Positions 15,001 through 18,000 of a stretch of 33,040 bases of DNA are shown in pieces. The first letter of the stretch is position 1; each line of letters starts with the position of its first letter. Origin of the DNA: Fidelibacterota bacterium (GTDB lineage Bacteria > Fidelibacterota > Marinisomatia > Marinisomatales > UBA2128); contig JBHHUM010000022.1 of NCBI GenBank assembly GCA_046861645.1, positions 1 to 33,040 of the forward strand, given 5' to 3'. The position numbers are program-made.

Positions 15001-18000
15001 AGATCAGCAATTGCTTCTGCCTGAGTAAGATCAATTTTACCATTTAAAAAAGCTCTTTTTGTAAATTCTCCTGGAGGTGCAGGCACAGCTCCTTGGTGTA
15101 GACAGGAAGACAGGATACTCTTTGGAGTAGATAAACCACCGTGACAAGAAATGTCAGCTACATCTTCACCAGTATATGAGAGGGGGCTTTTATAGAAAGT
15201 GATAACGGTTTCATCGAGGAGATTCCCTGATGAATTATAAATACTCGTAAGTGCAGCCTTACCATGATGGAAGAAAGAGGAGGGTTTGTGTGTAATTGAA
15301 GAGAGAATAGGAAGAGTCTTCGGTCCTGTTAACCTAATAATTGCTAAAGCACTGATTCCAGGTGGTGTTGCTTGTGCAACGATAGTCGGAATAACCCCCA
15401 GTGGGGACAGGGAGGTTGTCATTTTCCTTTTGTTAGAGTGGCAGGGGGGGGCGATTTTATCATATATTTCTGTTGAAAAATTGTTAAGAGATTAAAGCAA
15501 GTATAGTAGAGGTTTAATCCAGAGGGGAAGCTATAAAAAATAATGAGAAAGAACCCGTTCATTATATACATAAAGGATTTCTGTTGAGAGGGGGATTGTA
15601 CTGACATGGTCTTTTGCTGATATATCATGGTGGCGCCCATTAGAATCGGAAGAACATTAAAAGTATTCCATCCTAAAAACGGTATTGTAAATGGAAGGTT
15701 GAAGAGTTGATCGGGTTGTGAAAGGTCAGAAATCCAGAGAATGAAAGGAGCACCTCTAAACTCAATTGTTGAACGAAAAACAGTAAAGAGAGCAATAAGT
15801 ATTGGCATCTGTAACAACATTGGTAGGCACCCTCCAAGGGGGTTGACGCCATGCTCTTTGTAAAGTTTCATCGTTTCTTGGTTTAAGCGCTGGGGGTCTC
15901 CTTTATATTTTTGTCTAAGTTCTGTAATAAGTGGCTGGATGGCTTGCATTTCTTTAGTGGATTTGTAGCTTTTTCTAGTTAAGGGGTGTAACAAAACTTT
16001 CACAAGTATTGAAAAAACAATTAATAAGACCCCATAATTTGGGATTATTGAATATAAGTTTGTAAGTATCCAGAGAATGCTCTTACCTATGGGACGTATT
16101 GGGGACCAACCTAGACTCATGGTTTGTTCCAAACCAACCCCCAAATCAGTAAGCAAGTCATATCTCAGTGGGCCAAGGAAGATATTTGTCTCGGCTTGGC
16201 TACCGTAAAACCCAAGTTGAGCATTGAACTGTGAAGTTTCTCCTGTCTTGGTTGTAGAGATTTCACCTAGAGGGGCTCCACCTTCAGGAATTAGAGCCGA
16301 GATAAAATATTTGGTTCTAACAGCAGCCCAAGCCGTTTGTGCTTTACTACCGATTGATTTATCTTCACTGTTGCTTAATTTGAATATTTCCCCGCCTTGA
16401 TAAAGTATAGCTCCTAAATAGGTAATGTCGTCTTTTACGTTTTTTTCGGTGAAAGGGAGTCCACCTGACCACAGTAGATGTATTTCAGGTGTAACAGAGC
16501 CCGAAACAACCTCAGCATCTACAGAAATAAGATATGAGTTTGGAAGGAAAGTTAATTTCTTTATCGCACGTATACCGCTTGGAAGATCATTAAAGTAGTA
16601 AGTAAGTGTGAGGGGTTCTCTTTTAACTTGGAGTACTTCACCTCCCCTATAATCCTCAAGTGAAAAAACTGAGGTAAGAGTATCAACTGAAGCCCCAAGC
16701 CTGATAGCCAACAATGGGTTGCCTCCATTTTGGTTTGTATCAACAAGATCAACTTTACCACCGTTCCAAAAGTCATAATTATTTAGTAGAAATGACTGTA
16801 GGGTACCACCTCCTCGAGACGAGACCGTTGCTGTATAGAGATCTGTTTCAATGGTGATAATGGCTTCAGGTATGGAATCGGGTTTAGCAGGAAAAGTCTG
16901 GGTACCAAGCGGAGTGTGAGCAACGAAGCTTTTCGGGGTGGTCGTCTCCTGAATTTTGGTTGTGCTATTCCTATGGTTGATGATATCATTTTGAGAAGGT
17001 TCTCCTGTGGTCTCCTCAAGGGGTCTATCCTTAACAAGCCCAATCATTCTATAGTATTCGGGCATTAAGATTAAGATGAGGGCGATCAGGAGAAAAGCTA
17101 AAACAGTATTTTTATTCATGGCACTATTTAAGCTGGATCGTAACCGCCTTTTGACCAAGGGTGGCAGCTTAATAAGCGTCTTATGGAGAGTATAATAGCT
17201 TTGAAAGGACGGTATTTTGTTAGGGAGTCGATTGCATACTGGGAACAAGTGGGTTCATATCTGCAAGAAGGGGGAAAGAGTGGTGAAAGTAAGGTTTGAT
17301 AGACTTTGATTGTTGTGATGAGTAAAGTAGCAATAATTTTTCTCAATAGAGTACGACAATGTCCTTCGTTTAAGCTTGAAGAGAGGACACCACTTTTTGG
17401 CTTTTGAGTTGGTGAAGATATGTACAAGGAAAAATTAAGAAGAAAGGCGTTTTCGCCCCTTTTGTCGCCGTCTTTTTATGATGTTACGTCCACTTGGCGT
17501 CGACATTCTAGCCCGAAAACCATGTTTGTTTTTTCTCTTTCGGTTGCTTGGTTGATATGTACGTTTCATTATTTTACTCCGTTACTGCGGCGAAGTTAGG
17601 AAATGTTTAGAACGCAACCAATGAAATAGTAAACGAGGAAAAATTGTTGATCTTTTGGCAAAATAGGGTTAGGAATAAGTAGTTTCACGACAATAAATTA
17701 AGACACAACCCCACTGTGGACAACTTGTGAACAACTTTTGATGGATAGGCTAGATTTAGTTTGGAAAAATATTTCAGGCGCTGTACGTGCTTCAGTCACC
17801 GAACAGACATATGCTACTTGGTTTGAGCCACTGCATCCGGTTGCTATTACAGATTTTGAACTTACCATAGAAGTTCCTAGTAAGTTCTATTACGAATGGA
17901 TAGATAGCCACTATAAAAGTATAATTTTAGATGCCCTCAAAGCAGAGACGGGCAGTAATATAGATTTAAATTATAGAATCGCTGGCAAAAGCAGCCAGGT

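Follow-up and report, generated by a model that had tools for sequence, protein, structure and literature searches.

The closest described system is the bacterial class A RNase P, which is made up of an RNA (rnpB) and a protein (rnpA); in archaea and eukaryotes the RNase P proteins are unrelated to RnpA. With the bacterial enzyme the order Marinisomatales shares the full class A RNA, the neighbourhood of rnpB and the catalytic and tRNA-binding elements, but no RnpA is detected in it, and bases in J2/3, J18/2 and J19/4 that are near-fixed in rnpA-keeping relatives have changed again and again. According to the available part of PMC10941002, the Aquificaceae have the same reduced rpmH-yidD-yidC operon as the order and have lost both rnpA and rnpB, using HARP; the order keeps rnpB, and HARP was found in 0/49 of its genomes. 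The same text describes Nanoarchaeum equitans as being without RNase P and having leaderless tRNAs (PMC10941002, in part); it shares with the order the loss of an RNase P component, whereas the order keeps the RNA, long leaders and tandem tRNAs. Candidatus Hodgkinia cicadicola, as far as the accessible text of PMC6581868 goes, expresses rnpB, apparently lacks rnpA and has processed tRNA 5′ ends, and action of the RNA alone was proposed; like the order it has rnpB without rnpA, and it is the precedent found for this condition. On the other hand, Hodgkinia is an insect endosymbiont of 144 kb (PMC7191817, in the part available) that might use host proteins, while the genomes of the order are listed at about 0.8-3.7 Mb. 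A genome paper on Fimbriimonas states 'no rnpA or rpmH' in the section accessible (PMC4072686), which may be an annotation miss. In the literature on Marinimicrobia and RNase P no report for the group was found, and the genome list of PMC6380272 could already record the missing RnpA.

The window, i.e. the whole stretch of 33,040 nucleotides that was analysed (contig JBHHUM010000022.1, positions 1 to 33,040), carries the rpmH-yidD-yidC locus of one member of the order. The order comprises 233 species-level genomes and belongs to a group whose lifestyle we take to be free-living and marine. On the minus strand, rpmH (ribosomal protein L34, 17435-17569; TIGR01030 78.9 bits, cut-off 37.65) is followed by a gap of 88 nt in place of rnpA (17347-17434), by yidD (membrane protein insertion efficiency factor, 17128-17346; TIGR00278 80.3 bits, cut-off 40) and by yidC (membrane protein insertase, 15419-17119; TIGR03592 and TIGR03593 over cut-off), with mnmE (14046-15422; TIGR00450) and mnmG (12164-14026; TIGR00136), both over cut-off and on the same strand, as context. 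The dnaA gene (17738-19093, plus strand; TIGR00362 over cut-off) is divergent from rpmH, and therefore the locus is the canonical origin-proximal one. The length of the gap depends on the start of yidD: it is 88 nt with the inferred TTG start at 17346 and 7 nt with the longest frame, from 17427. In the sister orders and other classes rnpA takes up 300-360 nt at this place, so neither gap has room for a protein of 100-120 aa. The survey's finding had put the gap at about 60 nt, which was inexact, but its conclusion that rpmH-yidD-yidC leaves no room for rnpA is borne out by the gap and by the frames. No remnant of rnpA was detected in the sequence or the three frames of the 88-nt gap. In the Thermus type, rnpA overlaps rpmH in another frame; such a long spanning frame is absent from the rpmH of this genome, where both other minus-strand frames contain stops and no overlapping frame is long enough for RnpA.

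The same arrangement extends to the relatives. The gene directly next to rpmH is yidD in 21/30 and yidC in 9/30 order loci (the best 30 of 58 matches in 61 genomes, this genome included, with one yidC start judged by eye), and thus one or the other follows directly in all 30, as had been claimed. In the sister orders the gene order is rpmH-rnpA-yidD-yidC, and in one locus rpmH-rnpA-yidC. As a separate observation, yidD has also gone from the operon in the nine loci where yidC comes next (L070, L071, L079, L083, L087, L088, L089, L092 and L097, families f3, f4, f14 and f15). A YidC scan of genome contigs gave two relatives, both of them Marinimicrobia/Neomarinimicrobiota MAGs.

Searches for the protein itself gave a corresponding picture. 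PF00825 (RnpA) had no match in this genome (G000) at E<=10, and among 401 phylum genomes it matched 3/213 of the order (this genome apart), as compared with 59/69 in sister orders and 157/187 outside the order. A phylum RnpA profile of 20 sequences matched 4/233 order genomes; among the 100 with a completeness of 90% or more, one was matched and 99 were not. All four exceptions lie on foreign contigs (G243:C130, G382:C11, G389:C1 and G414:C116). The rnpA contigs of G382, G389 and G414 have 25-30% GC and a different gene order, and to our eyes they presumably resemble SAR11; the YidCs of G382 and G389 are 32-34% identical to the window YidC in the C-terminal part only, whereas order and sister YidCs are 36-70% identical to it over 400-580 residues. 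The exception with the sister-order gene order, G243, also proved to involve a foreign contig: its rnpA and a sister-type L34 stand on a second contig of 26.3% GC, while the native locus, at 40.5% GC, reads rpmH then yidC without rnpA. Foreign rnpA contigs in four order genomes would mask the loss in presence/absence tables. The L34 N-terminus, which is unusual in the sister orders f17, f19 and f21 and canonical in this order and the other classes, is a useful marker of origin (L010, L018, L028, L031 and L033, including the foreign contig of G243).

The order-wide loss put forward in the survey was thereby reproduced independently, and on these profile searches it is very probable. An artefact of assembly or binning has next to no probability: all the genomes are drafts or MAGs, this one being 94.5% complete in 184 contigs, but the assembly runs through the gap without a break in 30/30 loci (again the best 30 of 58 matches), by which an artefact is refuted, the high-quality genomes without a match number 99/100, and one relative, G071, consists of one contig 969,550 bases long. 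Comparison of the loci places the deletion in the ancestor of the order, where rnpA would have been removed once from an otherwise intact rpmH-yidD-yidC operon; a single loss is the simplest reading since the 43 RNase P RNAs of the order form one clade adjoining the sister orders (support 95/97).

It is unlikely that a true RnpA homologue, relocated and beyond profile detection, is still serving in these genomes. On the one hand, the evidence for absence comes from sequence methods, RnpA is a small protein that evolves fast (14-43% identity within the phylum alignment), and a profile made from a single family found one far-class RnpA at just E 0.12. On the other hand, cross-class profiles find the sister RnpAs easily, as a profile from other classes only recovered 17/17 of the sister-order RnpAs tested at E<=1.3e-8. 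RnpA profiles of 28 and 174 sequences, run with filters off on the six frames of G000 and G071, gave best E values of 0.43 and 0.18, respectively, in this genome (reversed controls 0.48 and 0.24) and of 1.4 and 1.7 in G071 (reversed controls 0.097 and 0.71), i.e. at the level of the controls, which agrees with the earlier claim that there is no RnpA anywhere in this genome. A comparison of 405 small G071 genes with RnpA by hhalign also stayed at control level, with a top value of 21.5 where two foreign RnpA controls reached 41 and 45, and no RnpA-like candidate was seen among the soluble, basic, unassigned G071 proteins of 75-180 aa. The recurring top profile match in this genome (C165:50162-50476) was rejected, being an antisense frame over a gene of 603 aa.

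While the protein is dropped, the RNA is kept. This genome encodes a full class A RNase P RNA outside the window (C75:31631-32064, minus strand; RF00010 261 bits, cut-off 100), and RF00010 matches 44/49 order genomes, 43 of them at full length; in both respects, presence here and retention across the order, the survey had been right. The RNA is retained even in genomes of 0.8-1.1 Mb (9/12 in family f3). The 43 RNAs of the order were aligned with 43 from rnpA-keeping lineages (14 from sister orders and 29 from other classes), 41/43 of the comparison genomes having a PF00825 match; the position numbers used here are the presumed E. coli equivalents. Variation is absent or minimal in CR I, CR II/III, J5/15 and the L15 GGU of the order RNAs, and P4 with its bulged U belongs to the same core, with G350, A351 and one P4 pair varying in some families. 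In P5, one pair shows a compensated flip in 43/43 order RNAs and in 0/43 of the comparison set, and a P4 pair has changed from A-U to G-C in 35/43 vs 0/43, this change being absent from families f1, f5, f9 and f11. General stabilisation of the order RNA was considered and not seen: the share of G-C pairs in P2 is lower in the order (39% vs 51% and 63%), and the P4 change is the sole strengthening observed. The similarity within the set is higher in the order (71%) than among the comparison RNAs (63%). The alignment indicates that the class A RNA is kept under purifying selection. An A.A mismatch in helix P4 beside the active site occurs in 6/43 order RNAs (L045, L064, L269, L056, L057 and L114; families f7 and f8). 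Contigs from RNA runs cover rnpB of the kin of G071 in 4/4 runs (three studies, marine), one of them at a depth of 214 inside the gene; because the runs were selected by this stretch, and because neither transcription, its level nor activity can be read from contigs, this coverage is not counted as support.

These properties of the RNA bear on a reading that is very unlikely, namely that a protein nuclease (endo- or 5′-exo-) matures the tRNA 5′ ends and that the RNA plays a minor part or is gradually degenerating. The changes at G350 and A351 and the P4 mismatch are near the active site, and in E. coli the RNA is impaired by the G350C change (PMC13022451, in the part accessible), but the tRNA-binding elements are fixed, the pairs change in a compensatory manner, and the RNA persists in the small genomes of f3. 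Moreover, no substitute came to light among the nucleases searched for in the genomes covered. HARP (PIN_5/PF08745) was found over cut-off in 0/49 order genomes and 0/151 phylum genomes, with positive archaeal controls, in line with the absence asserted before; PRORP (PF16953) was found in 0/12 order genomes, a search with no positive control among its 14 prokaryote controls; and RNase J reached the cut-off in 0/5 genomes (three order, two sister). NYN was rejected as a substitute, being sporadic (2/5 order genomes) and not present in G071.

The surface of the RNA that is bound by RnpA consists of P2, P3, J18/2 and CR V (PMC4919922, PMC9433436 and PMC13022451, each in the sections available). 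In our alignment 90 columns are invariant in at least 42/43 comparison RNAs, and 15 of them differ in at least two RNAs of the order; 10 of these 15 are located in P4, P5, J2/3, J18/2 and J19/4, and several of the 15 lie off the protein surface. The reverse pattern, invariance in the order and variation outside, is seen in 46 columns, the comparison set being the more diverse one. Four drifting sites, chosen after the fact from the 15 varying columns of the same data, are highlighted: G19 in J2/3 is changed to A in 18/43 order RNAs vs 1/43 in the comparison set, with 13 changes on the order tree; A330 (unpaired) to G in 10/43 vs 0/43, with three changes; G350 (unpaired) to A in 8/43 vs 1/43, with eight changes; and A351 (unpaired) to G in 4/43 vs 0/43, with three changes. 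At least one of these four single-stranded changes, all at or next to the RnpA surface, is found in 31/42 order RNAs vs 2/43, a count from which G099 was left out and in which one gapped row was scored as changed. The RNA of this genome has none of the four. If RnpA was truly lost and the RNA still works, one expects repeated change where RnpA used to bind and conserved tRNA contacts, as seen here. Since recurrent drift of the RnpA-facing bases is confined to this order, the pattern also argues against a diverged RnpA that still occupies the usual site; an unrelated partner bound elsewhere would explain it just as well.

The tRNA substrates offer a further explanation, according to which the tRNAs are leaderless or their leaders are too short for RnpA, which contacts the leader at N(-4) to N(-7) (PMC4919922, available part), so that the protein is dispensable. 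The distance from a -10-like motif to the tRNA gene is indeed shorter in the order, with a median of 14 nt (51 sites in three order genomes) vs 25.5 nt (40 sites in two sister genomes), and the ratio of short to long leader patterns is 52:127 in 49 order genomes vs 8:65 in 14 sister genomes, although these pattern counts take in chance matches outside tRNAs, kin are not independent and the start sites are inferred from the motif. Nevertheless, long spacings dominate (short to long 1:42 in f6, 0:3 in f7 and 0:5 in f11), and tandem tRNAs occur in all the genomes examined (5/44, 6/31 and 9/34). As leaders reaching N(-4) to N(-7) and tandem tRNAs persist, an endonuclease is still needed. Leaderless or short-leader tRNAs were therefore rejected as the order-wide cause, being a partial trend only, and as an explanation they are most improbable; shorter leaders could at best be an adaptation of single families (f1, f3 and f5), and a partial one.

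Several further observations on stable RNAs were made along the way. ARAGORN called 44 tRNAs in this genome, one of them probably spurious, and it called no tmRNA here, which may be unassembled or divergent. A second tRNA is called Asn(GTT) in G071 and G006; its acceptor stem resembles that of tRNA-Gln, which is either a miscall or a real oddity. SRP RNA was considered as a second substrate and set aside, because in the order and the sister orders alike the RNAs reach far upstream of the RF00169 match and the leader is unreadable. RF00169 matched 0/10 genomes of f3, 0/7 of f21 and nothing in this genome; other families do match it, and their SRP RNA is seemingly long, extending upstream.

The reading that we tentatively prefer is that the RNase P RNA works without a dedicated protein. 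The RNA would still be the catalyst of tRNA 5′ maturation, acting without an RnpA-type protein at the usual site, and the substrate would be bound by RNA contacts, i.e. the T-loops of the S-domain, J5/15 and pairing of L15 with the CCA end. Speculatively, slow growth, cations or polyamines, a high level of the RNA and perhaps non-specific basic proteins might offset the lost protein, and the bases once facing RnpA would have drifted after the loss. In its full form this reading describes a natural, multiple-turnover, trans-acting and protein-free RNase P ribozyme that matures tRNA 5′ ends in vivo in an order of free-living bacteria, its former protein surface visibly decaying, and in that form we offer it as possible and with some reserve. 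Several considerations weigh against action of the RNA alone. First, and as the main objection, activity of the RNA alone was negligible in vitro at 4.5 mM Mg2+, a level close to that of cells, over 15 s to 15 min, and the protein is held to be essential in all organisms (PMC9945441 and PMC13254310, respectively, both in part). Second, extra rnpB rescues the E. coli rnpA49 mutant just partly, with the mutant protein still there (PMC11251521, in the part available). Third, Hodgkinia as a precedent could import host proteins. Fourth, the four drift sites were picked post hoc, the RNA of this genome carries none of the changes, and no general stabilisation is seen.

The poor activity of the RNA alone at cellular Mg2+ (PMC9945441, in part) speaks at the same time for the somewhat doubtful alternative that the RNA acquired an unrelated protein as its partner in a non-orthologous replacement. 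The P5 change fixed in all order RNAs and the J16/17 loop, which varies less in the order than outside it, point the same way, and RnpA and Pop5, although unrelated, have overlapping binding surfaces (PMC13022451, as far as accessible). A zinc-ribbon coiled-coil gene (CT398/CdsZ-like) also adjoins rnpB in 18/18 order loci among those listed. However, the gene is directly upstream of rnpB, with recJ (recognised by eye) usually downstream, whether rnpA is present or not. The J16/17 loop, which is kink-turn-like, was likewise dismissed as order-specific, since the rnpA-keeping families f25, f28 and f30 have it too and L7Ae did not turn up in the five order genomes searched. Pfam scans for Pop5, Rpp21, Rpp29, Rpp30, Alba, L7Ae and PIN gave no match, and no candidate partner, in 416 small G071 proteins, which are part of the proteome (300/345 small proteins shared with G000 and 116/190 unshared candidates); L7Ae was found in 0/5 order genomes and YlxR/RnpM in 0/5 genomes (three order, two sister). 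Both readings allowed by the survey, the RNA alone or the RNA with an unrelated protein, still stand.

Two basic proteins were examined as substitutes and rejected. One, of 75 aa (C180:7374-7595 in this genome and L317:13071-13295), is also present in 13/13 sister genomes, where rnpA is kept; it has an internal repeat and belongs to no Pfam family, is 76-100% identical across the class, occurs in 84/121 phylum genomes and has Atlas relatives that include an archaeal cluster, and this small protein perhaps binds nucleic acids. The other, a core protein of 175 aa, is DUF6913-like. Independently of its bearing on RNase P, the CT398/CdsZ-like gene is found upstream of rnpB phylum-wide, even in a 1 Mb genome (L001 among the loci).

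As judged from its genes, the enzyme of Marinisomatales is a new, order-wide variant of the RNase P make-up, which departs from the canonical two-subunit type in RnpA. Where losses are known, HARP is present, the tRNAs are leaderless or the organism is a tiny endosymbiont. With an order in which the RNA stays and the protein is gone, it can be tested whether the RNase P ribozyme suffices for a cell on its own. Should it not suffice, a new protein partner must exist in the order, and either answer, action of the RNA alone as tentatively preferred here or a new partner, would be news. Dozens of natural RNA variants, together with the RNAs of rnpA-keeping sister lineages, are at hand for a direct comparison.
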